Positions 14,398 through 54,086 of a stretch of 64,000 bases of DNA are shown here, piece after piece. The stretch spans positions 20,599 through 84,598 of the forward strand of contig JALGWI010000001.1 of assembly GCA_025774245.1 (NCBI GenBank), written 5' to 3'. Below the pieces are notes generated by a model. That model saw nothing but the letters and a program-made list of their open reading frames with translations, ran no database searches and was not told the DNA's origin. The position numbers were made by a program, and so were the translations under genes. Positions within the stretch are counted from its first letter, which is position 1; every line of letters begins with the position of its first letter. Origin of the DNA: a bacterium. Its GTDB lineage: Bacteria > Joyebacterota > Joyebacteria > Joyebacterales > Joyebacteraceae.

Positions 14398-14470
14398 CGC
14401 GGGGAGGAGCGCCGCGCGCCGTGCCGGCCCGGAGCCGGCGGGCGCGTGGCGCTTGCGCGAGGAGACCACG

Positions 14471-19300: not shown

Positions 19301-20196
19301 GGGCCGTCCTGGTCGCGACGGGGACGGCGTTCGAGCCGGCGACCGCCGGCCGCGACGCCTCGCTCGCCGTCGGGCTTGCGGTCCTCTCGGGCCACGCCGA
19401 GGGCGGAGGATCGGGGATCCTCTTCCTCAGGGCCCGGGCAAACGGGCAGGGTCTGACCGACGCGGGTCTCGACCCGCGCTTCCTGCCCGGTCACGCCCCC
19501 GCGACCTCCGCCGATGCCCGCGCGCGCGTCGGGAAGCTCCACGGGGCGCCGGTACCGGCGCCTTCTGTCGGCGACGCCGCCGCGCTGTTTGCAGCCATCG
19601 AAGACGGGAGCGTCCGCGCGGCCCTCGTGGTCGGGGAGGATCCGGTGGCCGGAGCGGACGACCCGGACCGGGTCCGCCGCGTCCTCGGGAAGCTCGACTT
19701 CCTGGCCGTCCTCGACGTCGGGGAGACGGAGACGACGCCACTCGCGGCCGCCGTCCTGCCGCTCGCCTCGCTCGGCGAGCGGGCCGGGACGTTCACGAAC
19801 AGCGAGCGGCGAGTGCAGCGCGTGGGCGGGCCCCTCGCGCCGCCCTCGGGTCGCACGAACCTCGAGGTGCTCGGCGCCCTGGCCGTAGGCCTGGGACTCG
19901 GGACGGTCGAGACCGACGCGATCGCGGTGGCGAAGGAGGCCGGCGCTGCCTGGAACGGCACAGGCAACGCCGGAGGCAGTGCGGCCGACGGCTTCCGCTG
20001 GGGGGGCGAGACCCTCTACCCGGACCGCTTCGCGACCGGAACCGGGCGCGCGGACCTCTCGGTCCCGGAGCCTCGCACGCCTGCCGTCGTGTTCGATCCC
20101 CGCTGGGCCGATCCTCTGGAGGGCCGGCTCTCCCATTACGCCGAGGACGCCGGGCTCCCGCCGCACGTCGTCGCGCGCGGGGGAGATCGACCTTGA
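16336..20196 (+). CDS. Large multidomain Fe-S flavoprotein: N-terminal [2Fe-2S] ferredoxin, GltD/NfnB-like FAD/NAD(P)H oxidoreductase, 2x[4Fe-4S], and a NuoG/formate-dehydrogenase-like molybdopterin-oxidoreductase domain that appears to lack a catalytic Cys/Sec
   Basis: Track ORF (1286 aa). 2Fe-2S: TLCDDPQLPPFTSCWICAV...SCGTR. GltD-like: GRRVAMVGAGPGSLTAAYYLA...HVAVIGGGNTAVDAA. 4Fe-4S: CILCGRCIRIC, CESCGQCVTSCP. MopB-type: CSFCGTGCAIV...C. I saw no hydrogenase H-cluster motifs and no Sec/Cys in the FdhA active-site position. Confidence 0.65.
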   Translation: MALIKISLNGREVEVDAASTILEAARQHGIEIPTLCDDPQLPPFTSCWICAVKLEGMKRYIPSCGTRVAPGMKIWTDTDDVRAVRKMALELLLSNHRGDCVAPCKAACPAGVDVQGYIALISQGKYREAAKLVKEVNPFPLSIGRVCTRPCESECRRNAVDGPVGIDYLKRFAADWDAGHDDAYVPTTAASTGRRVAMVGAGPGSLTAAYYLAQKGHEVTIMEALPAAGGMLRYGIPEYRLPKKTLDTEIGLITTLGVRVEYNKALGRDFKLADLFADGYDAVFLGLGAMGSRKMKVPGEELEGVWAGTEFLKKMGLGEDVAIGKHVAVIGGGNTAVDAARTSLRLGAEKVTIVYRRSRTEMPAWDVEVEAALEEGVEMHFLAAPTRIEGEGACERMEFIRMELGEPDESGRRRPVPVEGSEAMLEVDNVIAAIGQVPDLSAIHETVESDPESLEAKLELTRWGTIVADETTGATSVERVYSGGDVARGAATAIEAIADGGKAAAAIHSYLTGETEYVPPSYFNITKERWDSFPESQLVGIERSERERMPELGVEERIRIFEEVELGYTEEQARREAARCLECGCVGAFTCQLREYAAEYGASSDRFGGEVVEDPADERHPFIRLEPEKCILCGRCIRICQEVEGAAALGFFRRGFQTQMKPALEQALAGTTCESCGQCVTSCPTAAISAVADLPKPGPWALEATRSTCSFCGTGCAIVLRTVEGSLATIEPAPDAGINEGNLCVRGRFGHLAAGERLASPLVKRNGKPAAASWDDAVGLVSKRLMAVAREHGPGAVAVFGSPGLTNEEAYRLQQLARAGLGTPNVASFGLARESAVFEALSRAFGRAASTASYADLRSAETILLIDSDIAEEETVSGIAIRKAVAAGARLVVISPDETRMARLADVWIRVGRADVGSVLAAMIEHATSKGLAGPARVTQGVDNLEEFKAAVAAISEGGRVAEGEPVVKGGDTTDAIVAAAEAYASASRAVLVATGTAFEPATAGRDASLAVGLAVLSGHAEGGGSGILFLRARANGQGLTDAGLDPRFLPGHAPATSADARARVGKLHGAPVPAPSVGDAAALFAAIEDGSVRAALVVGEDPVAGADDPDRVRRVLGKLDFLAVLDVGETETTPLAAAVLPLASLGERAGTFTNSERRVQRVGGPLAPPSGRTNLEVLGALAVGLGLGTVETDAIAVAKEAGAAWNGTGNAGGSAADGFRWGGETLYPDRFATGTGRADLSVPEPRTPAVVFDPRWADPLEGRLSHYAEDAGLPPHVVARGGDRP

Positions 20197-28987: not shown

Positions 28988-30184
28988 TTGAGCAGTATCG
29001 AGGTCATCAGGGACCGCTGCGTCGGCTGCGAGCTCTGCATCAAGGCCTGTCTCTACGACGCCATCGAGATGCAGGACGGCATCGCCGTCATCAAGGACAA
29101 CTGCACGCTCTGCGGCGCGTGCGTCGAGCCGTGCAAGTTCGACGCGATCATCCTGAGACACGAGGCCGTGCACGAGCGCGCGCCGATCGGCGACTTCCGG
29201 GGTGTCTGGGTCGTGGCCGAGCAGCGCGGCGGCGAGATGCACGGCGTCTCGTACGAGCTTCTCGGCAAGGGGAGGGAGCTCGCCGACACGCTCGGAACGA
29301 CGCTCGGGGCCATCCTGATCGGCAGCGGCGTCGAGGACCTCGCTCCCGACCTCATCGCGCACGGCGCCGACACGGTCTACGTGGCCGACGATCCCGCGCT
29401 TACGCACTACCTCGACGAGCCCTACGCGGCCGTCGTCGCCTCGCTCATCGACGAGCACAAGCCCGAGATTGTTCTCACCGGCGCGACGTCGACCGGGAGG
29501 TCGCTCATTCCGCGGGTCGCGATCTCGGTGCGCTCGGGGCTCACGGCCGACTGCACCGGCCTCGCGATCGACGACGAGAAGGGTCTCCTGCTCCAGACGC
29601 GCCCCGCGTTCGGCGGAAACATCATGGCCACGATCGTCTGCCCGGACCACCGTCCCCAGATGGCGACGGTGCGGCACAAAGTCATGACGGCGCTCGAGCC
29701 CGACGCCACCCGGAAGGGCGAGGTCGTGAAGAAGACCGTCACCGCAGACCTCCTCGCGTCGCGTTCGGCGTTCGTCGAGTTCGTGAAGGACCTCACGCAG
29801 ACCGTGAACATCGCCGAGGCCGACATCATCGTCTCCGGCGGCCGCGGCCTCGGGGGGCCCGAGAACTTCAAGGTCGTGGAGGAGCTCGCCGAGACGCTCG
29901 GCGGCGCCGTCGGGGCGTCGCGCGCGGCGGTCGACGCGGGGTGGATTCCGTACTCGCACCAGGTGGGTCAGACCGGCAAGACCGTCCAGCCGAAGCTCTA
30001 CGTCGCCTGCGGCATCTCGGGCGCCGTGCAGCACCTCGCAGGCATGCAGTCCTCCAAGTGCATCGTCGCCGTGAACAAGGACCCCGACGCGCCGATCTTC
30101 AAGGCCGCGACCTTCGGGATCGTCGGCGACGTCTTCGAAGTGCTCCCCGCGCTCAAGAAGAGGCTCGAGAAGGAACTCGGGTAG
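28988..30184 (+). CDS. etfA: Electron transfer flavoprotein alpha subunit with an N-terminal 2x[4Fe-4S] ferredoxin domain
   Basis: TTG start. N-terminal CVGCELCIKAC...CTLCGACVEPC, then an EtfA FAD-binding core (SGGRGLG...AVGASRAAVDAGW). Confidence 0.8.
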   Translation: MSSIEVIRDRCVGCELCIKACLYDAIEMQDGIAVIKDNCTLCGACVEPCKFDAIILRHEAVHERAPIGDFRGVWVVAEQRGGEMHGVSYELLGKGRELADTLGTTLGAILIGSGVEDLAPDLIAHGADTVYVADDPALTHYLDEPYAAVVASLIDEHKPEIVLTGATSTGRSLIPRVAISVRSGLTADCTGLAIDDEKGLLLQTRPAFGGNIMATIVCPDHRPQMATVRHKVMTALEPDATRKGEVVKKTVTADLLASRSAFVEFVKDLTQTVNIAEADIIVSGGRGLGGPENFKVVEELAETLGGAVGASRAAVDAGWIPYSHQVGQTGKTVQPKLYVACGISGAVQHLAGMQSSKCIVAVNKDPDAPIFKAATFGIVGDVFEVLPALKKRLEKELG

Positions 30185-30337
30185 CCCACACGACAATCGG
30201 GTCGAGATCCCCCGGGCACCCGGTGTCCCGCCGGAGGAGAAGGGCCTCGCCGGAGACACGAGCATCCTCCCGCCGTGGGCGCTATCAATCGAGGATCTTC
30301 CACAAGACTGGCTTCAGCGCCTCCATCGTGTATGCAG

Positions 30338-30366
30338 TTGACATCAAAGTCTGCACGCAGTATACT
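30338..30366 (+). promoter_or_regulatory. Near-consensus sigma70 promoter (TTGACA, 17-nt spacer, TATACT) about 120 nt upstream of the first beta-helix gene
   Basis: Read directly: gcagTTGACAtcaaagtctgcacgcagTATACTatcg. It sits in a 300-nt lower-GC intergenic region. Confidence 0.5.
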
Positions 30367-30489
30367 ATCGTCCAATTCGACTGCAACCCAATCACGAAGC
30401 TCCCTGCCAGGGAGCGTGTCTGCGCGCGGCAGCACTACCTCACGTGAGCCCCTCGCTGCGACGCAGTGCGTCCGAAACCGGAGGTGGAG

Positions 30490-33156
30490 ATGAGACCGCT
30501 CGCGACCATGCTCCTCGTTCTGGCGCTTGCTGTGGGTGCGAACGCCGGCCAGAACCCCGACATCAACATCTTCATCGAGTTCAACAACGGCGAGAACCGG
30601 ATCGATCCCGCAGTGAACGATCTGATCTCGGCCTACGTCTGCTTCGAGAACTTCGGCGACGGGGGCGGGATGACCGGAGCCGAGTTCCGGTTCAACAGGA
30701 CGTTTGGCGGGATGAAGCTCGGCGAGACGAACCTCCTCGGTGGCATCGAGCTGGGCGATCCGGAGACAGGCGACGGGTGGTCAATCACGGCCCCGTCCTG
30801 CGTGTTCCCGGACCCTGGAGGAGTCGTGGTCGCGGCGAAGGTGGACTACATCTTCCTGGGACCCGCCGGCATCATCGAGATCCTGCCTCATGCCCTGAAC
30901 GGGGCGAACGTCAACGACTGCTTCGCCGCCATCGACACGTGGTGCGTCCGGCTCGATCCGTCGGGGCACGGTGGGGTGTGGATGGATCCCCCGCCCGGGG
31001 ACTGCCCGTCGACCGACCCCAATCCGCACCGCTTCGACGTGCCGGCCGAGTACGAGACGATCCAGGCAGCCATCGACGCGGCGGCCCCCATGGACACGGT
31101 GTACGTGGCAGCTGGTACGTACGCGACATCGACGAACGGGGAGGTGTTCCCGATCGCGCTCGCAGACAGTGTTCTGGTGATGAGCGCGTCCGGTGCCGAG
31201 TCGACGATCGTGGACGCCGAGGATCAGGCATCGGTCTTCCATGGGGGGAACACGATTCTACGGGGTCTCCTCCAGGGCTTCACGATCACCTGGGGACTGG
31301 CGGACAACGGAGGCGGCATCCACCTCGACGACGTCGGCAGCCACGTCGCCGACTTCCTCGTCGAGGACTGCATCTTCTCTGAGAACCGTGCATGGTACCA
31401 CGGCGGAGGAGCATACATGTTCCAGTCCCGGGTCGTCTTTTCGGATTGCGCGTTCGTCAACAACGAGGCTCTCTTCGAATCGGGCGGCGGCGCGTACGCG
31501 TGGTCCGATGTCGCCTCGGAACGCTCGCTCTTCGGAGGCTGCACGTTCACCGGGAATGAGGCAGGTTTCTCCGGAGGCGCTGGGGCATCCCAAGGGGATG
31601 GGGCGTTTCCGTTTGTGGGGTGCACGTTTGTCGGAAACAGCGCCGAGGGGGAAGGCGGAGCGCTGCAGATCCCGAGCTCGGTGAGCTCTTGTATCTTCAT
31701 CGGCAACTTCGCTGGCTTCGGCGGGGCGTTGCACCATGCAGGCTGGGTGCGGGATTCGGTCTTCTGGGGCAACTGGGCCGAGTTTGGCGGGGCGATCCGC
31801 AACGCGTCCTCCGTCGAGAACTGCACGTTCGTGGGAAACGACCCCAGCGCCATCGACACCTCGAGTGGGGCCGAGGTGGTCCTCGTGGACAGCTCGCTGG
31901 TGGCGTTCAACACGGGGGGACCGGCGATCCCGTGTACCTTCGGGCCCGCGACGCTCACCGGCTGCAACGTGTACGGTAACGCTGGGGGCGACTGGGTGGG
32001 GTGCATAGCCGACCAGTACTGGTCGAGCGGGAACATATCCTTCGACCCTCTGTTCTGTGATGAGGAGGGCGGCGACTTCACGCTCTGCGAGAGTTCCCCG
32101 TGCGCGGCGGACAACAACCAGTACGGGGGGCGGATCGGCGCGCTGGGCGTGGGCTGCTCCGGGTGCGGGATCACGTCGATCCTGAACGTCCTCGACGTCC
32201 CGAATGACCAGGGCCGGTTCGCGCGTGTCAGCTGGGGGAGATCCCGCTTCGACGGCCCGGGGATGTTCGATCAGATCACGGGGTACGAGCTTCACCGCCG
32301 ACAGGACGCCCGCGCGCCGCGAGCGCCCCGCGGCCCGGCCGAGCCTCGCATGTCTGCGAGCGCGGAAGGCTCGCTGCGCATCGGCGGATGGGACTACGTC
32401 GCGACCATACCGGCGCACGGGGACTCGCTCTACCAGTACGTTTCTCCGACACTCTGCGACTCGACGGCCGAGTTCGGCATCTGCTGGTCCGTCTTCCTCG
32501 TGCGAGCGGCCACGGAGGATCAGCTTCTCTTCTTCGACTCGCCACCGGACAGCGGGTACTCGGTCGACAACCTGGCGCCCGAGGCTCCAGCCAATCTGAT
32601 GGCGGAAGGTGGGGTTGATGTCGTCGCGCTCTCGTGGGATCCGAACGAAGAGGAGGACCTCGACTACTACGCCGTCTACCGAGATACGGTCGAGAACTTC
32701 GTCCCGACCGAGCCCATCGGCTACACGACGGACGAGCTGTTCGAGGACGCGAACCCTCCGGTGGCGCCGGAGCTGTGGTACCGGGTGACGGCCTTCGACT
32801 TCAGCGGGAACGAGAGCGAGCCGTCGGCCTCGGCAGGCGCGACGGCGACGGGCGTCGAGGCCGAACCTCTCCCGACCACGCTCGTCCTCCACGGTAACTT
32901 CCCCAACCCCTTCAATCCGTCGACGGAGATCGTGTTCGGACTCCCGGCCGCGACCTCCGTGACGATCACCGTCTATGACGTCAGCGGGCGCGCGGTCAGG
33001 CGACTTCTCAAGGACGCGCGCACGGAAGCCGGCTCGCACACGGTGCGGTGGGACGGCCGTGACGACGCAGGACGGATCGTCCCCTCCGGCGTCTACGTCT
33101 ACACGCTCGTCGTCGAAGAGGAGACGCTCAGGCGTCGGATGCTCTTGCTCAAGTAA
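30490..33156 (+). CDS. Secreted right-handed parallel beta-helix repeat protein (889 aa) with an Fn3-like domain and a Por/T9SS-type C-terminal sorting domain
   Basis: In track ORF 30466..33156. Start at M9 (MRPLATMLLVLALAVGANA, signal peptide; GGAGGTGGAG RBS). PbH1-type entry motif EYETIQAAIDAAAPMDTVYVAAGTYATSTNGE. C-terminus LVLHGNFPNPFNPSTEIVFGLPAATSVTITVYDVSGRAV...GVYVYTL matches the TIGR04183-like Por secretion tail. Confidence 0.75.
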   Translation: MRPLATMLLVLALAVGANAGQNPDINIFIEFNNGENRIDPAVNDLISAYVCFENFGDGGGMTGAEFRFNRTFGGMKLGETNLLGGIELGDPETGDGWSITAPSCVFPDPGGVVVAAKVDYIFLGPAGIIEILPHALNGANVNDCFAAIDTWCVRLDPSGHGGVWMDPPPGDCPSTDPNPHRFDVPAEYETIQAAIDAAAPMDTVYVAAGTYATSTNGEVFPIALADSVLVMSASGAESTIVDAEDQASVFHGGNTILRGLLQGFTITWGLADNGGGIHLDDVGSHVADFLVEDCIFSENRAWYHGGGAYMFQSRVVFSDCAFVNNEALFESGGGAYAWSDVASERSLFGGCTFTGNEAGFSGGAGASQGDGAFPFVGCTFVGNSAEGEGGALQIPSSVSSCIFIGNFAGFGGALHHAGWVRDSVFWGNWAEFGGAIRNASSVENCTFVGNDPSAIDTSSGAEVVLVDSSLVAFNTGGPAIPCTFGPATLTGCNVYGNAGGDWVGCIADQYWSSGNISFDPLFCDEEGGDFTLCESSPCAADNNQYGGRIGALGVGCSGCGITSILNVLDVPNDQGRFARVSWGRSRFDGPGMFDQITGYELHRRQDARAPRAPRGPAEPRMSASAEGSLRIGGWDYVATIPAHGDSLYQYVSPTLCDSTAEFGICWSVFLVRAATEDQLLFFDSPPDSGYSVDNLAPEAPANLMAEGGVDVVALSWDPNEEEDLDYYAVYRDTVENFVPTEPIGYTTDELFEDANPPVAPELWYRVTAFDFSGNESEPSASAGATATGVEAEPLPTTLVLHGNFPNPFNPSTEIVFGLPAATSVTITVYDVSGRAVRRLLKDARTEAGSHTVRWDGRDDAGRIVPSGVYVYTLVVEEETLRRRMLLLK

Positions 33157-33248
33157 CGGGCACTGCGCCCGGATGGATGGGCCTCGCGCGGGCGAGGCGA
33201 GCGCGGGATAGCGGCCGCGCCCTGGACACCAGACGGAGGAAACGGACG

Positions 33249-36200
33249 ATGAGACGACTGCTGCTCGCGCTGCTCGCGATGTTCGTGGCTGTCGGCGTGA
33301 TCCAGGCCGGCCAGAATCCCGACATCAACATCTTCATCGAGTTCGACAACGGCGAGAACCGAATCGACCCGGTGACCAACCAGTTCTTCTCGGCCTACGT
33401 CTGCTTCGAGAACTTCGGTCCCGGCGGGGGGATGACCGCCGCCGAGTTCCGGTTCAACAGGACCTTCGGCGGGTTGAAGCTCGGCGAGACGAACCTCCTC
33501 GGTGGCATCGACCTGGGCGATCCGGAGACGGGAGACGGCTGGACGATCTCCGCTCCGTCCTGCGTGTTCCCAGACGCCGGAGGAGTCGTGGTCGCGGCAA
33601 AAGTGGACTACCTCTTCCAGGGACCCGCTGGCATCATCGAGGTTCTGCCTCATGCCCTGAGCGGGGCGAACGTCAACGACTGCTTCGCCGCCGTCGACAC
33701 GTGGTGCGTGCGGCTCGATCCGCCCGGACACGGAGGCGTGTGGACGGATCCCCCGCCCGGGGACTGCGAATCGACCGATCCGAACCCGCACCGCTTCGAC
33801 GTCCCTTCCGAGTACGCGACGATCCAGGCAGCCATCAACGCGGCAGCCATCGGGGACACCGTGTACGTGGCAGCCGGCACCTACGCGACGTCGACGAACG
33901 GCGAGACCTTCCCGATCATGCTCCGCGAGGGACAGACGGTGATGAGCGAGTCGGGAGCCCTGTCGACGACCGTTGACGCCGAGGGACAGAACACGGTCCT
34001 CGAAGCGATGACCCTGACCTCGCCCGTTCTGCTCAAGGGCTTCAGGATCACCGGGGGAGCCGCGATGATACGAGGCGGCGGCCTCAAGTGCGAGGCGGTC
34101 GACGCACTCACGGTCGAGAACTGCATGTTCAATTCGAACAGCTCGCCCACCGAGGGGGGTGGAGTCTACGTCAGCAGCAGCCCGGTCGCGTTTCGCGACT
34201 GCGCGATCTCCTACAACGACAGCTACAATGGTGCCGGTGTGTACTCTTGGAGCACCTCGGGAGCGGACATGCCGAGCTTCGAGGACTGCACGTTCTTCGA
34301 CAACACGGCAGTAGGGGACGGCGCCGCGGCCAAACTCGACGGCTTCGCGTTTCCGTCCTTCGACGGGTGCACCTTCGCAGGAAACAGCGCTGGCGGGAAC
34401 GGCGGAGCGCTGCATCAACCGGGCGACGTGATCGACTGCGTGTTCTGGGCGAACACCGCAGTCGAGGGTGGTGCCGTGTACGACGCCTGGTTCATTGACA
34501 GATGTCTGTTCTGGGAGAACGAGGCCACGCTGACGGGCGGGGCCGTGGTGGGCGGCTACCAGCTGAACCGGAGCACCTTCGTGGGCAACATCCCGAACGT
34601 CCTCTTCTGCAACGGCGACGACGTGGCCATGTACAGTGACATCCTCGCGTTCAACGGGGGCGAGCCGATCGTGCCTCCCGGCGGCAGCGCCACGCTCTCC
34701 TGCAGCGACGTGTACGGTAACGCCGCCGGCGATTGGGTCGGGTGCATCGCCGGTCAGCTCGGCGTGAGCGGGAACATCTCCCAGAATCCTCTCTTTTGTG
34801 ACGCGGAGGTTGGCGACTTCTATCTCTGTGCCGACTCGCCGTGCGCGGAGGAGAACAACCCCACGTGCCTGCAGATCGGCTTCTACGGCGTCGGCTGCGC
34901 GGGCTGCTGGACAGGCCCTGTCCATGAGGTCCCCGGCGAGTACGCGACGATCCAGGCGGCGATCGACGCAGCGGCGCCGGGCGACACGGTGCTCGTCGCC
35001 GCCGGCACCTACGCTACCTCCACGAACGGCGAGTCGTTCCCGATCACGCTCCGCGAGGGACAGACGGTGATGAGCGAGTCGGGAGCCCTGTCGACGATCG
35101 TGGATGCCGAGGGGCAGGCCACAGTACTCGAAGCGCTGTACCTGACGTCGCCTGTTCTGCTCAATGGCTTCAAGATCACCGGGGGAAACGCGATGTTGCG
35201 CGGAGGCGGCCTCAGATGCGAGTCGGTCGAAGCGCTCACGGTCCTGAACTGCGCGTTCGACTCGAATAGCTCGCCCACCGAGGGCGGTGGAGTTTACGTC
35301 TCAGGCAGCCCGGTCGGGTTTCATAACTGCTCGATCACCTTCAACGAGAGCGGCGATGGTGGCGGTGTAAGCTGCTGGAGCAGCGCAGTCTGGGAGGTGC
35401 CGAGCTTCGAAGACTGCACAATCTCCTACAACACGGCTGCAGGGGACGGCGGAGCGGCGAAGCTCAACGGCTTCGAGTTTCCGTCTTTCGAGGGATGCAC
35501 CTTCGCGTGGAACACTGCCGGCGGGAACGGCGGAGCGCTGTACGAACCGGGCGACGTGATCGACTGCGTGTTCTGGGGGAACGCGGCAATCGAGGGGGGC
35601 GCGGTGTACGACGCCTCGTTCGTGGACAGGTGCCTCTTCCGGGAGAACGTGGGGCTCGCAACAGGCGGCGCTGTGGTCGGCGGCTTCCAGTTGAACCGGA
35701 GCACCTTCGTGGGCAACAGCCCGAACGTCCTCGACTGCAACGGCGACGACGTGGCCATGTACAGCGACATCGTGGCGTTCAACGAGGGCGAACCCATCGT
35801 GGATAGCGGCGGAAGTGCGACACTGGCCTGCTGCGACGTGTTCGGGAACGCCGCAGGTGACTGGGTGGGAAGCATATCGGGCCAGAATGGAGTGACCGGG
35901 AACATCTCCCTGAACCCCCTCTTCTGCGATGCAGAGATCGGTGACTTCGAGCTCTGTGCAGACTCTCCGTGTGCGGAGGAGAACAACCCCGTGTGCCTGC
36001 AGATCGGCGTCTACGGTGGTGGATGCGCCGAATGCTGGTTCGGGCCGGTGCACGAGGTCCCTGCCGAGTACGCGACGATCCAGGCGGCGATCGACGCGGC
36101 GGCGCCGGGCGACACAGTACTGGTCGCGGCGGGGACCTACGCGACGTCGACGAACGGCGAGTCGTTCCCGATCACCTTGCGGGACGGCGTACTCGTGATG

Positions 36201-38156
36201 AGCGAGTCGGGAGCCCCGTCGACGATCGTGGATGCCGAAGACCAGGACACGGTCTTCCGGGCGGAGGGCCCGGCCTCGCCAGAGCTTCTGCAGGGCTTCA
36301 CGATCATGAGAGGAAGCGGGGCAATCGAGGGTGGCGGGATCTTCTGCGCTCTCGTCGAGGGGTTCACGATCGAGGACTGCACCTTCTCCGACAACGAGGC
36401 GCTCCTGCGGGGAGGCGGAGCGTACCTCAACTACAGCCCCGTCAGCTTCCGTGGCTGCACGTTTACCGGCAACAGTGCTGTCCTGGAGGATGGCGGCGGC
36501 GTGTATGTATGGGCCGACATCTCCGGAACGGCGCCGGACTTCGAGGACTGTTCGTTTCTGGGGAACACCAGCGGAAACGACGGTGGTGCGGCATGTACCA
36601 TCGGGGCCACAGCCTCCTGGTTCGTTCGGTGCACCTTCCTGGGGAACAGCGCCGACCGCAACGGCGGGGCCGTGGACCTGGCAAACAACGTGCGTGACTG
36701 CGTGTTCGCTCTGAACACGGCGGAGTATGGGGGGGCGCTCTACAACCCCACGACTGTGCACGGCTGCGTCTTCTGGGCGAACTCGGCGACATTGGGCGGG
36801 GCGGTAACCAGTGCCTTCTCGGTGTCCCAGTGTACCTTCGTGGGCAACAGCCCGAACGCCATCGACTGCGGCGGGGATGACACGGACATAGAGAACACCA
36901 TCGTGGCGTTCAACTTCGGTGGTGAGCCGATCGTGTGCTCCGGCGGCAACCCGACGCTCATCTGCTGCGACGTGTACGGCAACGCCGGCCCCGACTGGGG
37001 CGAGTGCACATCCGGCCAGTACGGAGTCAACGGGAACATCTCCGTCGACCCGCTGTTCTGCGACCACGAGAACGGCGACTTTACGCTGTGCGTGGGCTCA
37101 TCGTGTGCCGAGGGGAACAACCCCGGGTGCGGCCAGATCGGTGCTCTCGGTGTCGACTGCGACGACTGCGGGGACGCCACGATCCTGAGCGTCATCGACG
37201 TCCCGGACGACCAGGGGAGATTCGCGAGGGTCAGGTGGGCGAAGTCGCCCTTGGACACTCCCGGCAATCTCCTCGCCATCACCGGGTACGAGCTGCACCG
37301 CCGTCAGGACGGCCGAGCGCGCGACTCCGAAGAGCTGGCGGCGTCCACTCCGGTGGCGCCTCCGGCGGGATCCCCGCGGATGGACGGGTGGGACTACGTC
37401 ACCATGATCCCGGCGCACGGAGACTCCGTCTACCAGTACGTCTCTCCGACGCTCTGCGACTCGACGGCCGAGTCCGGAATCTGCTGGTCGGTCTTCCTCG
37501 TGAGGTCGGCGACCGATGATCCCTTCCTCTACTTCGATTCCCCGCCCGACAGCGGGTACTCGGTCGACAACCTCGCGCCTGAGGCTCCGACCAGTCTGAT
37601 GGCGGATGGCGACGTCGGTGTCGTCGCGCTCGTGTGGGATCCGAACGAGGAAGAGGATCTCGACTACTACGCGGTCTACCGCGATACCGTCGAGGACTTC
37701 GTGCCGAGCGAGCCGATCGGCTTCACGACGGACGAGCTGTTCGAGGACACCGATCTGCCCGCGGTCCCGGAGCTGTGGTATCGCGTGACGGCCTTCGACT
37801 TCAGCGGGAACGAGAGCGAACCGTCGGCATCGGCGGCCGCGACGGCGACGGGCGTCGAGGCCGAACCTGTCCCGACCGCGTTGGTGCTCAATGGCAACTT
37901 CCCCAACCCCTTCAATCCGTCGACGGAGATCGGGTTCGGACTCCCGACGGCGACCTCCGTGACACTCACCATCTATGGCGTCAGCGGCCGGGTGGTCAGG
38001 CGGCTCGTCACGGGCTCTCGCATGGAGGCCGGCACTCACGCGGTGCGCTGGGACGGCCGCGACGATGCCGGACGGGTCGTTCCCTCGGGTGTCTACGTCT
38101 ACACCCTCGTCGCCGACGAGGAGACACTCCGGCGTCGGATGCTCCTGCTGAAGTAG
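33249..38156 (+). CDS. Paralogous secreted parallel beta-helix protein (1636 aa) with three tandem ~370-aa beta-helix modules, an Fn3-like domain and a Por/T9SS-type C-terminal sorting domain
   Basis: In track ORF 33177..38156. Start at M25 (MRRLLLALLAMFVAVGVIQA). The N-terminal and C-terminal ~200-300 aa are near-identical to gene 30490..33156, also at DNA level. Three modules each begin VP.EYATIQAAI.AAA.GDTV.VAAGTYATSTNGE.FPI and end in a 4-Cys cap. Confidence 0.75.
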   Translation: MRRLLLALLAMFVAVGVIQAGQNPDINIFIEFDNGENRIDPVTNQFFSAYVCFENFGPGGGMTAAEFRFNRTFGGLKLGETNLLGGIDLGDPETGDGWTISAPSCVFPDAGGVVVAAKVDYLFQGPAGIIEVLPHALSGANVNDCFAAVDTWCVRLDPPGHGGVWTDPPPGDCESTDPNPHRFDVPSEYATIQAAINAAAIGDTVYVAAGTYATSTNGETFPIMLREGQTVMSESGALSTTVDAEGQNTVLEAMTLTSPVLLKGFRITGGAAMIRGGGLKCEAVDALTVENCMFNSNSSPTEGGGVYVSSSPVAFRDCAISYNDSYNGAGVYSWSTSGADMPSFEDCTFFDNTAVGDGAAAKLDGFAFPSFDGCTFAGNSAGGNGGALHQPGDVIDCVFWANTAVEGGAVYDAWFIDRCLFWENEATLTGGAVVGGYQLNRSTFVGNIPNVLFCNGDDVAMYSDILAFNGGEPIVPPGGSATLSCSDVYGNAAGDWVGCIAGQLGVSGNISQNPLFCDAEVGDFYLCADSPCAEENNPTCLQIGFYGVGCAGCWTGPVHEVPGEYATIQAAIDAAAPGDTVLVAAGTYATSTNGESFPITLREGQTVMSESGALSTIVDAEGQATVLEALYLTSPVLLNGFKITGGNAMLRGGGLRCESVEALTVLNCAFDSNSSPTEGGGVYVSGSPVGFHNCSITFNESGDGGGVSCWSSAVWEVPSFEDCTISYNTAAGDGGAAKLNGFEFPSFEGCTFAWNTAGGNGGALYEPGDVIDCVFWGNAAIEGGAVYDASFVDRCLFRENVGLATGGAVVGGFQLNRSTFVGNSPNVLDCNGDDVAMYSDIVAFNEGEPIVDSGGSATLACCDVFGNAAGDWVGSISGQNGVTGNISLNPLFCDAEIGDFELCADSPCAEENNPVCLQIGVYGGGCAECWFGPVHEVPAEYATIQAAIDAAAPGDTVLVAAGTYATSTNGESFPITLRDGVLVMSESGAPSTIVDAEDQDTVFRAEGPASPELLQGFTIMRGSGAIEGGGIFCALVEGFTIEDCTFSDNEALLRGGGAYLNYSPVSFRGCTFTGNSAVLEDGGGVYVWADISGTAPDFEDCSFLGNTSGNDGGAACTIGATASWFVRCTFLGNSADRNGGAVDLANNVRDCVFALNTAEYGGALYNPTTVHGCVFWANSATLGGAVTSAFSVSQCTFVGNSPNAIDCGGDDTDIENTIVAFNFGGEPIVCSGGNPTLICCDVYGNAGPDWGECTSGQYGVNGNISVDPLFCDHENGDFTLCVGSSCAEGNNPGCGQIGALGVDCDDCGDATILSVIDVPDDQGRFARVRWAKSPLDTPGNLLAITGYELHRRQDGRARDSEELAASTPVAPPAGSPRMDGWDYVTMIPAHGDSVYQYVSPTLCDSTAESGICWSVFLVRSATDDPFLYFDSPPDSGYSVDNLAPEAPTSLMADGDVGVVALVWDPNEEEDLDYYAVYRDTVEDFVPSEPIGFTTDELFEDTDLPAVPELWYRVTAFDFSGNESEPSASAAATATGVEAEPVPTALVLNGNFPNPFNPSTEIGFGLPTATSVTLTIYGVSGRVVRRLVTGSRMEAGTHAVRWDGRDDAGRVVPSGVYVYTLVADEETLRRRMLLLK
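33811..37170 (+). repeat. Three tandem direct repeats of ~1.13 kb (units starting ~33811, ~34938, ~36074) inside the beta-helix gene
   Basis: Long runs are nearly identical between units, e.g. 34938-35100 versus 36074-36240 (gagtacgcgacgatccaggcggcgatcgacgc...gtgatgagcgagtcgggagcc...cgacgatcgtggatgccga). Confidence 0.7.
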
Positions 38157-38183
38157 CGGCGCCGCTCGAGCAGATCATACGAA

Positions 38184-38222
38184 GAGGCCCCCGGCCATGT
38201 TCGCCGGGGGCTTCTCTCGTTC
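38184..38222 (+). terminator. Intrinsic-terminator-like hairpin between two convergent genes
   Basis: GAGGCCCCCGGC - catgttc - GCCGGGGGCTTC (about a 12-bp stem) followed by tctcgttctc. It lies 28 nt after the stop at 38156. Confidence 0.4.
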
Positions 38223-38261
38223 TCGGTCGTGTGGCTGGACTCTCGGCCGCGCTCGCCACCG

Positions 38262-39563
38262 CTACTGCGCCAGCTCCGCCCGGAGTCTCGAAAGCCTCTC
38301 CTGGACCAGCCGGTCCATCTCCTCGATTCCCGATGGAAGCGCGGGCCAGGGCTTGCGCGCCGGAACCGTCGCGTACTCGGGAGGGAACCTGTCCAGGTGC
38401 TCGTGCGGCATCATCTCGACCAGAAGACGTCCGTCCATGTCGGTCGGGATCGGCGCTCCGACGAGAGCGAGGAGCGTCGGGGCGAAGTCGATCGTCGCGG
38501 GCCGAAAAGGCGTGTGGCTCCTCTCGAGCCCCTGCCCCCTCACGACGAGGACGCCGGGAGGCCCGTTCACGTGGCCGCCGGAGTATCCGGGGAGGTCGAA
38601 GACCGGGTGGGTGCCGTACGTCGAGCAGACGACGAAGATCGTGTTGTCGTCCGCGAGCCGCAGGAACCTCTCCACGGTCTCGTCGACAAACGCGTAGTAG
38701 TTCGGGAGCACGTCCTCGTAGCGGGCGAACGACGCCGGCAGGTCGTGGAAGAGCTCGGGCGAAGCCGGGGCGATGAAGCGATGCCCGACGGCGTCGAGTC
38801 CGCCGAGGTAGACGAACGAGAGCTGCGGCTCCTCCTCGGCGATGAGCCTCGCCGCCAGATCGGCGACGACCGAGTCTGCGAGGTAGCTCCACCGGGCCGC
38901 CAGGACGTGGTCGAACCACCTCCGGTCGACCGGCAGTGACGGATCGAGGATCTTCTCTCCGAACCCGGCGGCGTATCGCGAGAGGTTCGCGTCCACGACT
39001 CTGGCGATCCGGGCCGCGAGCGCGTCCGAGGCGGTCTCTCCGGCTCCCGAGCCGAAGAGCGCCGGCGCGAGGGACGCTTCGTGCGCGCCGCTCGCGGGCG
39101 AATAGGGCGCCACGACCGTCGGCGCGTCGGGGCCGACCGGCCACGCGCCGGGCCAGCCGACCGCGATGGTCCTGACCCCCGCGTCGGCCGCGATCCTCGC
39201 GACCTCGGGCACCGCTCCGAAGAGCCTCGGGTCGTCGCCCTCCAGTCTCTCCCGCTCGGCGTCGGTCGGGGGGCGGCCGCTCGCGAATCGCGTCCACCCG
39301 ACGTGCGGGAGCACCGGGCGGTCCGCGACGACCTCTCCCGTCATCCCCGCCCGGAGGAGCCGCTCCAGTGCCGGGAGCTTGCCCTGCTCGATGTACCTCC
39401 CGACGAGGAACCAGTCGAGTCCGTCGACCGCGACCACCATGACCCTGACCTCGGTGTCGGGAGCCTCCGTGACCTCGCCTGCCGGCCGCCACACGATGGC
39501 GAAGGCGAGGAACGCAAGTGCGATGGCGAGAAGGACCGCGAGAGTCGTGCGCCTTGTCTTCAT
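38262..39563 (-). CDS. Alkaline-phosphatase-superfamily protein (type I phosphodiesterase / nucleotide pyrophosphatase-like) with an N-terminal membrane anchor or signal
   Basis: Track ORF. MKTRRTTLAVLLAIALAFLAFAIVW, then VMVVAVDGLDW (AlkP-core metal-binding Asp region) ... GGLDAVGHRF ... GGHVNG. Confidence 0.6.
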   Translation of the reverse strand: MKTRRTTLAVLLAIALAFLAFAIVWRPAGEVTEAPDTEVRVMVVAVDGLDWFLVGRYIEQGKLPALERLLRAGMTGEVVADRPVLPHVGWTRFASGRPPTDAERERLEGDDPRLFGAVPEVARIAADAGVRTIAVGWPGAWPVGPDAPTVVAPYSPASGAHEASLAPALFGSGAGETASDALAARIARVVDANLSRYAAGFGEKILDPSLPVDRRWFDHVLAARWSYLADSVVADLAARLIAEEEPQLSFVYLGGLDAVGHRFIAPASPELFHDLPASFARYEDVLPNYYAFVDETVERFLRLADDNTIFVVCSTYGTHPVFDLPGYSGGHVNGPPGVLVVRGQGLERSHTPFRPATIDFAPTLLALVGAPIPTDMDGRLLVEMMPHEHLDRFPPEYATVPARKPWPALPSGIEEMDRLVQERLSRLRAELAQ

Positions 39564-43536: not shown

Positions 43537-44679
43537 GTGATCGCGACGATCGTTGCCGAACGGAGAACCGCGCTCTACGAGCAGCACGTGGCTGCCGGCG
43601 CCAGGATGGTCGACTTCTTCGGCTGGGCGATGCCCATCTACTATCGGGGCATCGTCGCCGAGCACGACCGCGTCCGAGCCACGGCGGGCATCTTCGACGT
43701 CTCGCACATGGGGCAGCTCGTGCTGCGTGGCGCCGACGCGCTCGCGGCGGTCGAGCGGGTGACGACCAACCGCGTCGCGTCGCTCAGGGAGGGGCGCGTC
43801 CAGTACTCGATCATGTGCTACGAGCACGGCGGAATCGTCGACGACGCTCTCGTCTATAACCTCGGAGACCGGTACATGCTCGTGGTCAACGCGTCGAACT
43901 GCGACAAGGACCTCGAGTGGATCCGGTCGAACATCTCCGGCGACGTGACGCTCGAGGATCACTCCGACCACACCCAGCTGGTCGCGATCCAGGGACCGGC
44001 GGCGGAGGCGGTGCTCGGGCGGATCGTCGACGTGGACCTCTCGTCGGTCGCGTACGCCCAGTCGCTCCAGCTCGACGTCCTCGGGAAGAGGACGCTCGTC
44101 TCCCGTACCGGATACACCGGCGAGGACGGCTTCGAGATCTACGGCGCCAACGATCACGCCGGACCGGTGTGGGACGCGCTCCTGGAGGAAGGGGCCGCGT
44201 GGGAGGTCGAGCCGATCGGTCTCGGGGCGCGGGACACGTTGCGGCTCGAGATGGGCTACCATCTCTACGGCCAGGACATCGACGAGACGAGGACACCCGT
44301 GGAGGCCGGGCTCTCGTGGGTCGTCAAGACCGACAAGGGCGGTTTCATCGGCCGCGACGCGATCCTCGAGCGGAAGAAGAAGGGGGCGCGCGAGCGCCTC
44401 ACCGGGTTCGAGCTCGAGGGGCGCGGCATCCCGCGGCAGGGACATCGCATCCTCGTCGACGGCGAGGACGCGGGCGTCGTCACGAGCGGGACGTACTCGC
44501 CGAGCCTCGGCAGGGGCATCGGCCTCGGCTACGTGAAGACGGAGAGCGTCAAGGCGGGCGGCGGGAAGATCGGCGTGGGCGCGGAGCTTGCGATCGAGAT
44601 CCGTGGACGCGCGATCCCTGCGAAGACCGTGAGGCCCCCCTTCTATCGGGAAGGGACCGTCCGCAGCAGGAAGGCATAG
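43537..44679 (+). CDS. gcvT: Glycine cleavage system T protein (aminomethyltransferase)
   Basis: GTG start. RTALYEQHVAAGARMVDFFGWAMPIYY is typical of the GcvT N-terminus. 380 aa. Confidence 0.85.
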   Translation: MIATIVAERRTALYEQHVAAGARMVDFFGWAMPIYYRGIVAEHDRVRATAGIFDVSHMGQLVLRGADALAAVERVTTNRVASLREGRVQYSIMCYEHGGIVDDALVYNLGDRYMLVVNASNCDKDLEWIRSNISGDVTLEDHSDHTQLVAIQGPAAEAVLGRIVDVDLSSVAYAQSLQLDVLGKRTLVSRTGYTGEDGFEIYGANDHAGPVWDALLEEGAAWEVEPIGLGARDTLRLEMGYHLYGQDIDETRTPVEAGLSWVVKTDKGGFIGRDAILERKKKGARERLTGFELEGRGIPRQGHRILVDGEDAGVVTSGTYSPSLGRGIGLGYVKTESVKAGGGKIGVGAELAIEIRGRAIPAKTVRPPFYREGTVRSRKA

Positions 44680-45153: not shown

Positions 45154-46509
45154 GTGCCGTACGTTCCGAACACCGACCGCGACCGACGCGCGATGCTCGA
45201 CACGATCGGCGCGGCGTCCGTGGATGAGCTCTTCGCCGACGTTCCGGCCGAGCTCAGAACGTCGGGGGATCTCGACGTTCCGGGCCCCCTCTCGGAGCTC
45301 GAGCTCCTGCGGCACATGCGGAAGCTCGCCTCCGCGAACAGGACGACCGACGACGTCGTGTCGTTCCTGGGCGGGGGCGTCTACGACACCGTCGTGCCGT
45401 CGGCCGTTCGGCACATCACCGGCTTGCCTCACTTCTACACCGCCTACACCCCCTACCAGGCGGAGGCGAGCCAGGGGACGCTCCAGAGCATCTACGAGTT
45501 CCAGTCGCTCATCGCGCGGCTGACGGGCCTCCCCGTCGCGAACGCGTCGATGTACGACGGCGCGTCTGCGGCCGCGGAGGCGTGCGTGGCGGCGCTCGCC
45601 GTCACGAGGAAGAGGAAGATCCTGCTCTCGGCGACGACGAACCCGGCCCTGAGGGCGGTCACGAAGACGTACCTGGGCGCGTCGGGCGCCGAGGTCGTCG
45701 AGCTTCCCTCGCGCGACGGCGTGACTGACGTCGACGTGCTCGGCGACGCCCTCGGGGACGCCGCGGCCGTGGTCGTCCAGCACCCGAACTTCTTCGGGCT
45801 GCTCGAACCGGTCGCCGAGATCGGAGAGCGCGTCTCGGAGTCGAGTGCGCTCCTTGTCTCGTCGGTCGATCCGATCTCCCTCGCGCTCCTGGCACCCCCG
45901 TCCGCGTACGGCGCCGAGATTGCGGTCGGCGAGGGGCAGTGCCTCGGGGCGCCGGTCGCCTTCGGCGGCCCGCTCCTGGGTTTCATGGCGACGACGCGGA
46001 AGCACGTCCGGCGGCTCCCCGGCAGGATCATCGGCGGGGCGACCGACGACGAGGGCCGGCGCGGCTACATCATGACGCTCCAGACGCGCGAGCAGCACAT
46101 CCGTCGTGAGAAGGCCACGTCGAACATCTGCACGAACCAGGGCCTCGTTGCCCTCGGGGCGACGGTCTATCTCTCGCTCCTCGGGAAGGCGGGCTTGAGA
46201 GAGCTGGCCGTCCAGCTCGCCTCGAAGGCGCGCTACGCAGCCGACGCGCTCTCGCACGTGCGGGGCGTCAAGCTCCGCTTCGACGGTCCCTTCTTCCGGG
46301 AGTTCGTGGTCGAGCTTCCGTTCGACGCGGCGCGCACGAAGTGCGAACTCTCGAAGATCGCAATCTGGCCCGGCATCAACTGCGGCTGCTACTACGACGA
46401 CATGAAGAACTGCCTCCTCGTGACCGTCTCCGAACGGCACACGAGGGAGGACATCGATACGCTGGCCTCGGCTCTCGAGGCCATCATCGCTACCGGAGGA
46501 ACGGCGTGA
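45154..46509 (+). CDS. gcvPA: Glycine dehydrogenase (decarboxylating) subunit 1
   Basis: GTG start 2 nt after the gcvH stop. YVPNTDRDRRAMLDTIG...YTPYQAEASQGTLQ is typical of GcvPA. Confidence 0.85.
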   Translation: MPYVPNTDRDRRAMLDTIGAASVDELFADVPAELRTSGDLDVPGPLSELELLRHMRKLASANRTTDDVVSFLGGGVYDTVVPSAVRHITGLPHFYTAYTPYQAEASQGTLQSIYEFQSLIARLTGLPVANASMYDGASAAAEACVAALAVTRKRKILLSATTNPALRAVTKTYLGASGAEVVELPSRDGVTDVDVLGDALGDAAAVVVQHPNFFGLLEPVAEIGERVSESSALLVSSVDPISLALLAPPSAYGAEIAVGEGQCLGAPVAFGGPLLGFMATTRKHVRRLPGRIIGGATDDEGRRGYIMTLQTREQHIRREKATSNICTNQGLVALGATVYLSLLGKAGLRELAVQLASKARYAADALSHVRGVKLRFDGPFFREFVVELPFDAARTKCELSKIAIWPGINCGCYYDDMKNCLLVTVSERHTREDIDTLASALEAIIATGGTA

Positions 46510-53408: not shown

Positions 53409-54041
53409 ATGTTGCGTCGAAGGCTACCGCTGCTGCTGTGCTTCATCGCCGGTCTCTTCATGGCGGTCCAGTACTACGTCCCCCACCACTCGGTGCAGAG
53501 TGCCTACGAGACGTTGCTGCTCTGGCTCCAGACGCTTCTCGCCTTCGCGTTCCTCCTCGGGACCGTGAGTCTGATCCGGGTCCACTACCACAAGATCAGG
53601 AACAAGGCTGCCGACCGCGGGTTCAGCCTCGTGATGTTTGCGGGGCTCTTCGCCATGCTCGGTCTCGGCTTCTTCCACCCGTCGCACCACGCGCCGGGGT
53701 CGCCGTTCAACCTGATGTTCCTGAACGTCCAGGTGCCGATCGAGGCGACGATGTTCTCGCTCCTGGCGTTCTACGTTGCCTCGGCCGCCTTTCGCGCCTT
53801 CCGCGCGAGGACGCTCGAGGCGACGCTGCTGCTCGTCGCGGCAGCGATCGTGATGCTCGGGCGTGTCCCGATCGGGGAGATGATCTCGAGCACGATCCCC
53901 GAGGCCACCCGCTGGATCCTCGAGGTGCCGAACCTCGCCGCGAAGCGTGGGATCATGATCGGCGTCGGCCTCGGCATGATGGCGACGTCGCTCAAGATCA
54001 TCCTCGGCATCGAGCGCGCGTGGATGGGCGGAGGCGACTAG
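53409..54041 (+). CDS. Cassette 1, protein B: polytopic membrane protein (~5 predicted TM helices). Family unknown.
   Basis: GAGG RBS. Hydrophobic segments LLLCFIAGLFMAV, LLLWLQTLLAFAFLLGTV, FSLVMFAGLFAMLGLGFF, TMFSLLAFYVASAAF, LLLVAAAIVMLG, IMIGVGLGMMATSL. Confidence 0.55.
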   Translation: MLRRRLPLLLCFIAGLFMAVQYYVPHHSVQSAYETLLLWLQTLLAFAFLLGTVSLIRVHYHKIRNKAADRGFSLVMFAGLFAMLGLGFFHPSHHAPGSPFNLMFLNVQVPIEATMFSLLAFYVASAAFRAFRARTLEATLLLVAAAIVMLGRVPIGEMISSTIPEATRWILEVPNLAAKRGIMIGVGLGMMATSLKIILGIERAWMGGGD

Positions 54042-54086
54042 ACGTCGTCTCTACGTGGGCGCGGACGGCCGCGCCCGGAGGCACTG

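Follow-up and report, generated by a model that had tools for sequence, protein, structure and literature searches.

Two neighboring, co-oriented genes, g1 and g2, encode large, probably surface-located proteins of one common plan in the 64-kb stretch of DNA analyzed here (the window), which comes from an uncultured Eisenbacteria-like bacterium. Each protein consists of a signal peptide, a 160-aa N-terminal domain (N-domain), beta-helix modules of 376-385 aa each (one in g1, three in g2), two Fn3-like sandwiches (MidA and MidB) and a T9SS type A tail. The termini of the two genes share a more recent ancestry than their modules. With moderate confidence the two proteins are read as T9SS-displayed, fibrillar-adhesin-like surface proteins of different lengths, in which module number changes by recombination and the termini are kept alike by conversion or swapping. 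The arrangement is real, but ordinary within a protein family that is widespread and little studied.

JGI gene calls agreed with both ORFs, that of g2 being P0248, and Shine-Dalgarno sequences (GGAGGTGGAG and GGAGG) were located upstream of both ATGs. An earlier interpretation made without database searches (the sequence-only reading) had described two giant proteins. The genes are where it placed them and the proteins are large rather than giant. It had also called the termini near-identical at the DNA level, which was overstated. The N-domains share 87% amino acid and 88% nucleotide identity, and the C-regions 77 and 81%, respectively. The stretches quoted as almost base-identical (30541-30600 against 33304-33360, and 32890-32940 against 37880-37920) are similar, at 92% identity, and the longest exact run between the g1 and g2 termini is 37 nt. 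No further copies of any of the five domains were found elsewhere in the window, and an Rfam scan of the whole window gave no RNA family. Two minus-strand ORFs with high GC3 that run antisense within g2 (33881-34150 and 36740-37282) were rejected as frame artefacts of a high-GC gene. The coordinates of all features are given in Table 1.

Table 1. Features of the g1-g2 region, with positions in the window.
Feature	Position	Strand	Basis
Promoter-like TTGACA-17-TATACT upstream of g1	30338-30366	+	11/12 consensus matches; consensus match only
g1, 888 aa	30490-33156	+	ORF and SD-ATG, JGI gene call, domain map
g1 signal peptide MRPLATMLLVLALAVGANA	30490-30546	+	Read from sequence
g1 N-domain, cohesin-like fold	30547-31026	+	
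g1 module: DUF1565-type entry cap, PMP-type coils, Cys-rich exit cap	31027-32181	+	Pfam Beta_helix 42.5 bits, DUF1565; aligned with g2 modules
g1 MidA, Fn3-like sandwich with disordered insert	32182-32565	+	AF2 strands, tandem FnIII Foldseek matches
g1 MidB, Fn3 domain	32566-32880	+	Profile against PDB
g1 T9SS type A / FlgD-Ig-like C-terminal domain and stop	32881-33156	+	TIGR04183 35.5 bits; PF13860 44.1 bits
g2, 1635 aa, g1 plan with three modules	33249-38156	+	ORF and SD-ATG, JGI gene call
g2 signal peptide MRRLLLALLAMFVAVGVIQ-A	33249-33305	+	Read from sequence
g2 N-domain, cohesin-like fold	33306-33788	+	87% aa identity to g1 N-domain, same alignment
g2 module M1	33789-34916	+	1128-nt unit; 78% aa and 81% nt identity to M2
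g2 module M2	34917-36044	+	Passes POMP_repeat TIGR01376, 27.6 bits (cut-off 15)
g2 module M3	36045-37184	+	55-57% aa identity to M1 and M2
g2 MidA, Fn3-like domain	37185-37565	+	Local HMM match, alignment
g2 MidB, Fn3 domain	37566-37880	+	Local HMM match, alignment, PDB profile
g2 T9SS type A / FlgD-Ig-like C-terminal domain and stop	37881-38156	+	TIGR04183 29.0 bits, scanned alone
Terminator-like GC-rich hairpin, then U-rich tract	38179-38222	+	Folding energy

The promoter-like site was the sole such site in 30100-38400, where shuffled sequences averaged 0.6. An invertible promoter was considered and rejected, the flanking inverted repeat being only 10 nt, which is at chance level. The region of the terminator-like hairpin (38160-38235) had a folding energy of -47.5 kcal/mol (z = -6.5) and lies between the convergent g2 and phosphodiesterase genes. 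No comparable structure was found in the g1-g2 spacer (z = -1.1). The genes are tandem paralogues and probably form one operon, since a single promoter-like site precedes g1, their spacer has no terminator-like site and the strong hairpin comes only after g2.

The three tandem repeats of about 1.13 kb reported earlier in g2 were recovered by a repeat search and BLAST with a periodicity of 1128 nt, and g1 carries one such unit. Tandem Repeats Finder missed this period because its longest period is 500. M3 has 66-67% nucleotide identity to M1 or M2, and the g1 module 60-64% to any g2 module. In place of the long identical runs that the sequence-only reading saw in the g2 units, the longest exact run is 50 nt (M1/M2). 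Each module is complete, with a DUF1565-type entry cap, about nine PMP-type coils (C-x-F-x-x-N / GGA) and a Cys-rich exit cap. The entry motif noted before was found as EY[AE]TIQAAI[DN]AAA, with a single occurrence in g1 and three in g2. The exit cap had been described as a four-Cys cap; the PLFCD cap has the same distribution over the two genes, with five invariant Cys after PLF. More Cys are stacked inside the helix, giving 14-20 per module. Between the caps the invariant columns of the five aligned modules contained only G, N, F, C, A, V, T, I and P, and no invariant charged residue was found. The right-handed beta-helix proposed earlier was borne out by Pfam Beta_helix, DUF1565 and PMP repeat models, all matched above their cut-offs (PF13229, 42.5 bits in g1; PF07602, 76.6 bits, in three stretches of g2; PF02415, 50.3 bits; TIGR01376, 50 bits). 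Matches to PF22842 (Pel9A-like_beta_helix) are on record as precomputed Pfam annotation only.

A Sec-type signal peptide was read in both proteins, with predicted cleavage between MRPLATMLLVLALAVGANA and GQ in g1 and between MRRLLLALLAMFVAVGVIQA and GQ in g2. By eye, that of g1 has a basic n-region, a hydrophobic core and A-x-A preceding GQNPD. The context of the cleavage site is kept in 17 homologues. The N-domain that follows had been left without an identity by the sequence-only reading, and its cohesin-like fold is an addition of this analysis. A cohesin fold was found for it, at Foldseek E-values of only about 2e-3. No family was found for the N-domain in Pfam and NCBIfam, and no Pfam model matched at E<=1, Cohesin (PF00963) included. 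Its profile had no relative and no cohesin match among PDB sequences. A dockerin motif search of the window and 80 related loci found none; the pattern works, having detected the dockerins of P0058, P0107, P0108 and P0114. A literature search on Latescibacteria with cohesin and dockerin found no papers. The N-domain is carried by about 200 sequence clusters, most of them secreted stand-alone proteins of about 190 aa, and it also occurs with other passengers. The ~190-aa proteins end in a conserved PVE..sWGxIKALYR tail, and the same tail ends unrelated proteins too.

Two beta-sandwiches lie between the helix and the tail, where one Fn3-like domain had been described; they are Fn3-like by fold and profile only. 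No Pfam fn3 match was obtained at E<=1. The MidB profile matched PDB entries for the Fn3 domains of BDI_3064 (1e-7) and chitinase A1 (1e-3), and a fold search matched the whole C-region to FnIII tandems at E about 1e-9. MidA has no model in Pfam or NCBIfam and gave no Pfam match at E<=1; in the AF2 model of g1 MidA, residues 43-64 have low pLDDT. The sorting domain proposed earlier was corroborated, as both isolated tails passed the TIGR04183 cut-off of 23 bits. In whole-protein scans g1 scored 29.6 bits and g2 21.8, under the cut-off. Both tails also passed Pfam FlgD_ig, and that of g1 scored 44.1 bits against 24.7 for Por_Secre_tail. The AF2 model of the tail has seven strands in an Ig-like beta-sandwich, with pLDDT of about 87-93 over most of the tail. 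The tail profile matched FlgD Ig-like domains and the C-terminal domains of PorU and PorZ. The end of the tail, GVYVYTLV...RRRMLLLK, agrees with the usual ending of T9SS tails. No T9SS machinery (PorK/L/M/N, Sov, PorU, PorV) was found among the scanned genes of the window, and a literature search on Eisenbacteria and type IX secretion found no papers.

The Fn3-Fn3-tail cassette was found at at least 594 loci in FCB-type candidate phyla, with module numbers from 0 to 4, in keeping with the variable module number suggested before, and with other passengers too. In one locus (L030) two such genes likewise stand in tandem, with 3 and 2 modules. The cluster representative of g1 is a 41-aa fragment; hence g1 itself was absent from the first homologue search. 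The FCB-like lineage proposed earlier agrees with UvrA, which is 84% identical to that of named Candidatus Eisenbacteria MAGs and 63-65% identical to those of KSB1, Calditrichaeota and Zixibacteria. The host is diderm, since the window encodes a lipid A acyltransferase, heptose synthesis genes, an outer-membrane beta-barrel protein and a TonB-dependent receptor.

The three-module array could in principle have arisen as an assembly expansion or chimera. One assembly (L082) breaks 84 nt before the M1/M2 junction, and a related MAG contig (L001) starts within its gene. The risk of repeat collapse, raised with the original description, was dispelled by two further metagenome assemblies from separate samples (L081 and L083). 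These are collinear with the window without gaps, at 99.98 and 99.94% identity, have at most one SNP in g1 and g2 together and give the same three-module structure. The units moreover differ by 19-34% and have no exact run above 50 nt in common, and an artefact is extremely improbable. Trees were compared by segment (custom NJ bootstrap, one tree per segment). g1 and g2 grouped together at both termini (bootstrap 98% for the N-domain and 100% for the C-region), but in the module tree g1 grouped with L001 (99%). Divergence between g1 and g2 at four-fold sites was 0.24 in the N-domain and 0.36 in the C-region, against 0.55 between the g1 module and M3 (Fisher p = 4e-5 and 0.002); synonymous sites are near saturation (GC3 around 0.85-0.9), so the divergence ages are rough. 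These results uphold the duplication and exchange claimed earlier, the discordant segment trees supporting gene conversion or module swapping. Stronger purifying selection could also have kept the termini alike by itself, with no conversion or exchange of modules. The dN/dS values are lowest at the termini (0.19 and 0.25, against 0.26-0.71 in the modules) and both terminal cassettes are conserved across phyla. This explanation is nevertheless quite unlikely, as four-fold sites too are less diverged in the termini, and protein-level selection alone does not account for topologies that conflict at 98-100% bootstrap.

The g1 and g2 proteins most likely end up on the cell surface, by analogy with the T9SS cargo of Bacteroidota. 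After Sec export the C-terminal tail would direct them through the type IX secretion system, and a PorU-type sortase would remove the tail and join the protein to the outer membrane via its C-terminus, as in Bacteroidota. In that position the Fn3 pair would serve as spacer and the rigid beta-helix modules as stalk, with the N-domain forming the distal tip. The two proteins would carry much the same tip, g1 on a short stalk and g2 on a long one, in the manner of fibrillar adhesins. Module number would shift through unequal recombination between modules, and gene conversion or module swapping would keep the termini alike while the exposed modules diverge. An adhesin-like rather than enzymatic role is preferred because of the PMP-repeat matches and the lack of an invariant charged residue between the caps.

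Secreted or surface-bound polysaccharide-active enzymes, of the pectate/alginate lyase or epimerase type of beta-helix and docked by the cohesin-like domain into a cellulosome-like complex, are an unlikely alternative to this adhesin-like role. The precomputed Pel9A-like matches, a weak DUF5123 match and weak profile matches to AlgE4 epimerase and a PL6 alginate lyase point in that direction, as does the fold of the N-domain; scaffoldin-like proteins with cohesin and a T9SS tail, inferred in Cloacimonadota (PMC8542988), offer a precedent. The PDB matches are, however, limited to the N-terminal entry cap, the five aligned modules have no invariant charged residue between the caps, dN/dS is higher in the modules than in the termini, and the dockerin search of the window and 80 loci was negative. 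It is very unlikely that the proteins are non-adhesive structural parts of a surface layer or sheath. A rigid, repetitive beta-helix with Fn3 domains and a T9SS tail would suit such a part, and Tannerella has T9SS-exported S-layer proteins (PMC8869499). Against this, no sign of lattice-forming domains was seen and the distal cohesin-like domain suggests binding. A further idea, rather improbable, is that the cohesin-like N-domain defines an unrecognized surface-assembly system in Eisenbacteria-like bacteria. The WGxIKALYR tail would be a new C-terminal sorting or strand-donor tag, and g1 and g2 would be T9SS-anchored stalks of two lengths presenting one domain, which would bind partners or polymerize with the small tailed proteins.

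We know of no experimental work on the cell surface of Eisenbacteria and neighboring candidate phyla. The pair gives a clean, assembly-verified example of the dominant surface-protein design in these groups and draws attention to the cohesin-like N-domain and MidA, for which databases have no model. It documents how such families diversify, with recombination probably keeping the termini alike as module number and sequence drift. The discordant segment trees and the spread of the cassette are new here; current understanding of T9SS cargo and beta-helix adhesins is not overturned.

FCB candidate phyla and Planctomycetota have direct homologues of both proteins, which are multi-module beta-helix proteins with 25-58% identity, 1-4 modules and in many cases the Fn3-Fn3-tail cassette. 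Their annotation is right-handed parallel beta-helix repeat protein or choice-of-anchor Q protein. The cohesin-like N-domain of g1 and g2 is present in just a few of them (P0002-P0004, P0006 and P0008-P0010). To our knowledge none has been characterized. The chlamydial Pmp adhesins also have a beta-helix of GGA and FxxN repeats, and PF02415 and TIGR01376 matched g1/g2 above cut-offs. Pmps, however, are autotransporters with a C-terminal beta-barrel. No autotransporter family was found in g1 or g2 by Pfam and NCBIfam scans, and their C-terminus is the Fn3-Fn3-T9SS tail. Each g1/g2 helix is also separately capped, and such modules stand in tandem in g2. Compared with cellulosome cohesins and the Cloacimonadota scaffoldin-like protein (PMC8542988), the N-domain has 8-15% identity and lacks a Pfam Cohesin match. 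It is present as a single copy at the tip rather than as tandem cohesins, without dockerins nearby, and most members of its family are the stand-alone WGxIKALYR-tailed proteins.

Like the T9SS type A cargo of Bacteroidota (gingipains, surface adhesins), g1 and g2 combine a Sec signal peptide with a C-terminal Ig-like sorting domain that passes TIGR04183 and is similar to the domain at the C-terminus of PorU and PorZ. As putative cargo they differ in their Eisenbacteria-like host and in a tail that fits FlgD_ig better than Por_Secre_tail. Fibrillar adhesins (PMC8286594, PMC9210967) are anchored to the surface at one end and carry a distinct domain at the other, with repeated domains as the stalk. 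In g1 and g2 the stalk would consist of complete beta-helix modules in place of small Ig-like repeats and adhesion is putative, but the predicted layout is the same, with an anchor signal, a beta-helix stalk (repeated in g2) and a distinct distal domain.

Genes g1 and g2 belong, as new members, to a widespread family that has yet to be characterised, encoding beta-helix proteins with T9SS tails that are probably displayed on the cell surface. The two ORFs have the same orientation and are separated by a spacer of 92 nt. g1 starts at the ATG at 30490 and g2 at the ATG at 33249, preceded by the Shine-Dalgarno sequences GGAGGTGGAG and GGAGG, respectively. The JGI gene calls (888 and 1635 aa) agree with these starts. 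A two-gene operon is likely, since a promoter-like site lies 5' of g1, no terminator-like site was found in the spacer and g2 is followed by a strong hairpin and a U-rich tract (-47.5 kcal/mol, z = -6.5). The surrounding genes are housekeeping, with plsX, fabH, fabG, fabF, rnc, an acyl-CoA dehydrogenase gene and etfBA upstream and a convergent phosphodiesterase gene, uvrA and glycine-cleavage genes downstream.

Features of g1 and g2. Domains were mapped with local HMMs built on the two proteins; residues are numbered along the longest ORFs, whose starts precede the true ATG by 8 codons in g1 and by 24 in g2. The promoter-like site is in window coordinates.
Feature	g1	g2	Detail
Promoter-like site	30338-30366		TTGACA-17-TATACT, 11/12 consensus matches
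Signal peptide	aa 9-27	aa 25-43	
N-domain	aa 28-187	aa 44-204	
Beta-helix module(s)	aa 188-572	aa 205-580, 581-956, 957-1336	
MidA	aa 573-700	aa 1337-1463	
MidB	aa 701-805	aa 1464-1568	
C-terminal tail	aa 806-896	aa 1569-1659	

The sequence-only reading had proposed three tandem repeats of about 1.13 kb in g2, a four-Cys cap present as one copy in g1 and three in g2, and termini near-identical at the DNA level. A repeat search of the window DNA found a 1128-nt unit spacing three times in g2 and one unit in g1. g1 has a single entry motif and a single PLFCD cap and g2 has three of each, the cap count being as proposed. The N-domains were 87% identical in amino acids (88% nt) and the C-regions, comprising MidA, MidB and tail, 77% (81% nt). 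The first two g2 modules, M1 and M2, shared 78% (81% nt), while the third, M3, shared 55-57% (66-67% nt) with either, and the g1 module 48-55% (60-64% nt) with any g2 module. The two pairs of stretches described as almost base-identical were 92% identical, and no exact run in common was longer than 50 nt anywhere, against the long identical runs described for the g2 units. The repeat structure is therefore real but "near-identical" was an overstatement. The interpretation of the locus was otherwise largely correct.

Repeats of over 1 kb had also been flagged as at risk of collapse in short-read assemblies. The window UvrA is 100% identical to one protein present in four JGI metagenome assemblies. 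Contigs from two of these (L081 and L083) were collinear with the window across g1 and g2 without gaps, at 99.98% and 99.94% identity and with zero and one SNP in the genes. Collapse is unlikely as the g2 units are 19-34% diverged, and the feature is real and assembly-verified. The third contig, L082, begins at window 34833; this is 84 nt short of the M1/M2 junction and fits a contig break caused by the repeats. The fourth, L084, has its start beyond the downstream end of g2. Genes of this family thus hold the ends of two independent short-read contigs, L082 and L001 (MAG Meg19_46_Bin_182), the latter about 8 codons into its gene at the border of signal peptide and N-domain; paralogue similarity is suggested to fragment assemblies without collapsing them. 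L082 lacks 109 nt inside gcvT (window 44423-44531), where the gene call is split, and L084 lacks about 36 nt in gcvP (window about 45248-45272), which shortens the product by 12 aa. Both gaps could be indel variation in the population or mistakes of assembly.

The closest named UvrA relatives were from Candidatus Eisenbacteria MAGs (84% identity), followed by KSB1, Calditrichaeota and Zixibacteria (63-65%). Eiseniibacteriota is among the candidate phyla in the NCBI listing. The phylum is usually placed in the FCB superphylum, in agreement with the FCB-like lineage first proposed. The host is diderm, since the window encodes a lipid A acyltransferase, heptose synthesis, an outer-membrane beta-barrel protein and a TonB-dependent receptor. 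No T9SS machinery genes were found within the 64-kb window.

Other loci in the window included two paralogous DUF6754 proteins (52110-53348 and 55950-57182; E = 1e-121 and 1e-116). The three ORFs between them (53409-55869) had no Pfam or NCBIfam match, and the region looks like a duplicated cluster. A 1286-aa fusion (16336-20196, +) carries 2Fe-2S, GltD-like pyridine-nucleotide oxidoreductase, Nqo3-like ferredoxin and molybdopterin oxidoreductase domains and adjoins a NuoF-like flavoprotein gene (14453-16258, +). The pair resembles an NAD(P)H-linked formate dehydrogenase or electron-bifurcating module.

Beta-helix modules in both genes were borne out by matches to Pfam Beta_helix, DUF1565 (three stretches in g2) and Chlam_PMP and to NCBIfam POMP_repeat. 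Each module is one complete capped beta-helix, with an N-cap (EYATIQAAIDAAAPGDTV.VAAGTY), about nine coils with a C-x-F-x-x-N and GGA pattern, and a Cys-rich exit cap (NIS..PLFCD...GDF.LC..SPCA..NNP...G.GC..C). JGI precomputed hits include Pel9A-like_beta_helix. When five modules were aligned, the positions that never varied between the caps held G, N, F, C, A, V, T, I and P alone, and every invariant charged residue lay in a cap. The module profile matched solved structures weakly and through the entry cap only (AlgE4, E = 0.002). These two results favour, but do not prove, a structural or adhesive helix rather than an enzyme.

The AF2 model of the C-region (pLDDT 78) is made of three beta-sandwiches, the MidA one interrupted by a disordered insert. 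Foldseek matched it to FnIII tandems at about 1e-9 and also to the PorU chain. The MidB profile matches Fn3 domains. The proposed Fn3-like region is supported by fold and by profile only, with two domains in place of one; neither MidA nor MidB matched Pfam or NCBIfam. MidA (window 32182-32565 and 37185-37565) is Fn3-like with conserved DVPNDQG, PTLCDST and DSGYSVDNLAP motifs. The tail profile hit FlgD Ig-like domains as well as the PorU and PorZ C-terminal domains. Scanned alone, both tails passed FlgD_ig and TIGR04183 (35.5 and 29.0 bits for g1 and g2, cut-off 23), in support of the predicted Por sorting domain.

The MidA-MidB-tail cassette had at least 594 matching stretches in GTDB species representatives, from Eisenbacteria, Krumholzibacteriia, Calditrichota, KSB1, Latescibacterota, Gemmatimonadota and Ignavibacteria, among others. 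It is very common in FCB-type candidate phyla, on many different passengers. Module number varies as suggested, from 0 to 4 in the best 80 of these loci. One tandem pair (L030) has 3 and 2 modules, with its shared C-terminal part 57% identical and the remaining modules 33-38% identical. Modular shuffling was equally evident in protein-database homologues. The 90%-identity cluster of g1 (window 30490-33153) is represented by a 41-aa ENA fragment, P0391, so g1 was missing from the hits of a homologue search made with it, a quirk to bear in mind before calling any protein absent from the database.

L001 is syntenic with the window downstream (75-80% nt identity), its sequence lacking the upstream side; its gene has a single module and the contig begins inside the signal peptide. 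NJ bootstrap trees disagreed between segments. g1 and g2 paired in the N-domain (98%) and C-region (100%) trees, while in the module tree the g1 module paired with that of L001 (99%) and M1 with M2 (100%). Four-fold-site divergence at conserved residues, near saturation at the GC3 of these genes, agreed. Between g1 and g2 it was 0.24 for the N-domain and 0.36 for the C-region (either vs L001 0.44-0.49 and 0.44-0.50), both significantly below the module value of 0.55 for g1 vs M3 (Fisher p = 4e-5 and 0.002; either vs L001 0.45-0.48). The termini of g1 and g2 are therefore more recently related than their modules, either by gene conversion at the termini or by swapping of modules. This is clear sequence evidence of recombination between the paralogues, as the duplication and exchange proposed earlier would predict. 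M1 and M2 differ by 0.37, dating their duplication, with synonymous sites near saturation, only roughly to the last common ancestor of the C-regions.

The cohesin-like N-domain is rare. When 1.84 billion cluster representatives were searched exhaustively by HMM, only 197 relatives came up, mostly stand-alone secreted proteins of about 190 aa ending PVE..sWGxIKALYR, together with a few large T9SS-tailed proteins. Among the matches listed, 104/143 relatives end in this motif and a stop codon. Places with this tail, none of them in the window, are proteins P0121-P0126 and most of P0251-P0389, and sites on related contigs L015 (1-1080 and 6768-7367), L003 (near 3490), L028 (near 14697, minus strand) and L045 (near 19005 and 11180). 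The tail also ends ORFs of related genomes without an N-domain match. It matched no NCBIfam model and could be a tag for sorting or strand donation that has gone unrecognised. Neither the window nor 80 related loci contained a dockerin motif. A scaffoldin-like protein with cohesin and a T9SS tail has been inferred in Cloacimonadota (PMC8542988).

By analogy with export and anchoring in Bacteroidota, the g1 and g2 proteins would cross the inner membrane by Sec and fold in the periplasm, where the Cys-rich caps would acquire disulfides. The tail would direct them through the T9SS and be cut off, leaving the protein anchored by its C-terminus to the outer membrane. The Fn3 pair would then be proximal, the beta-helix modules a rigid stalk and the cohesin-like domain the distal tip, with nearly the same tip on a short (g1) and a long (g2) stalk. 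This putative layout is like that of fibrillar adhesins, which consist of an anchor, a stalk and a distal adhesive domain (PMC8286594 and PMC9210967).
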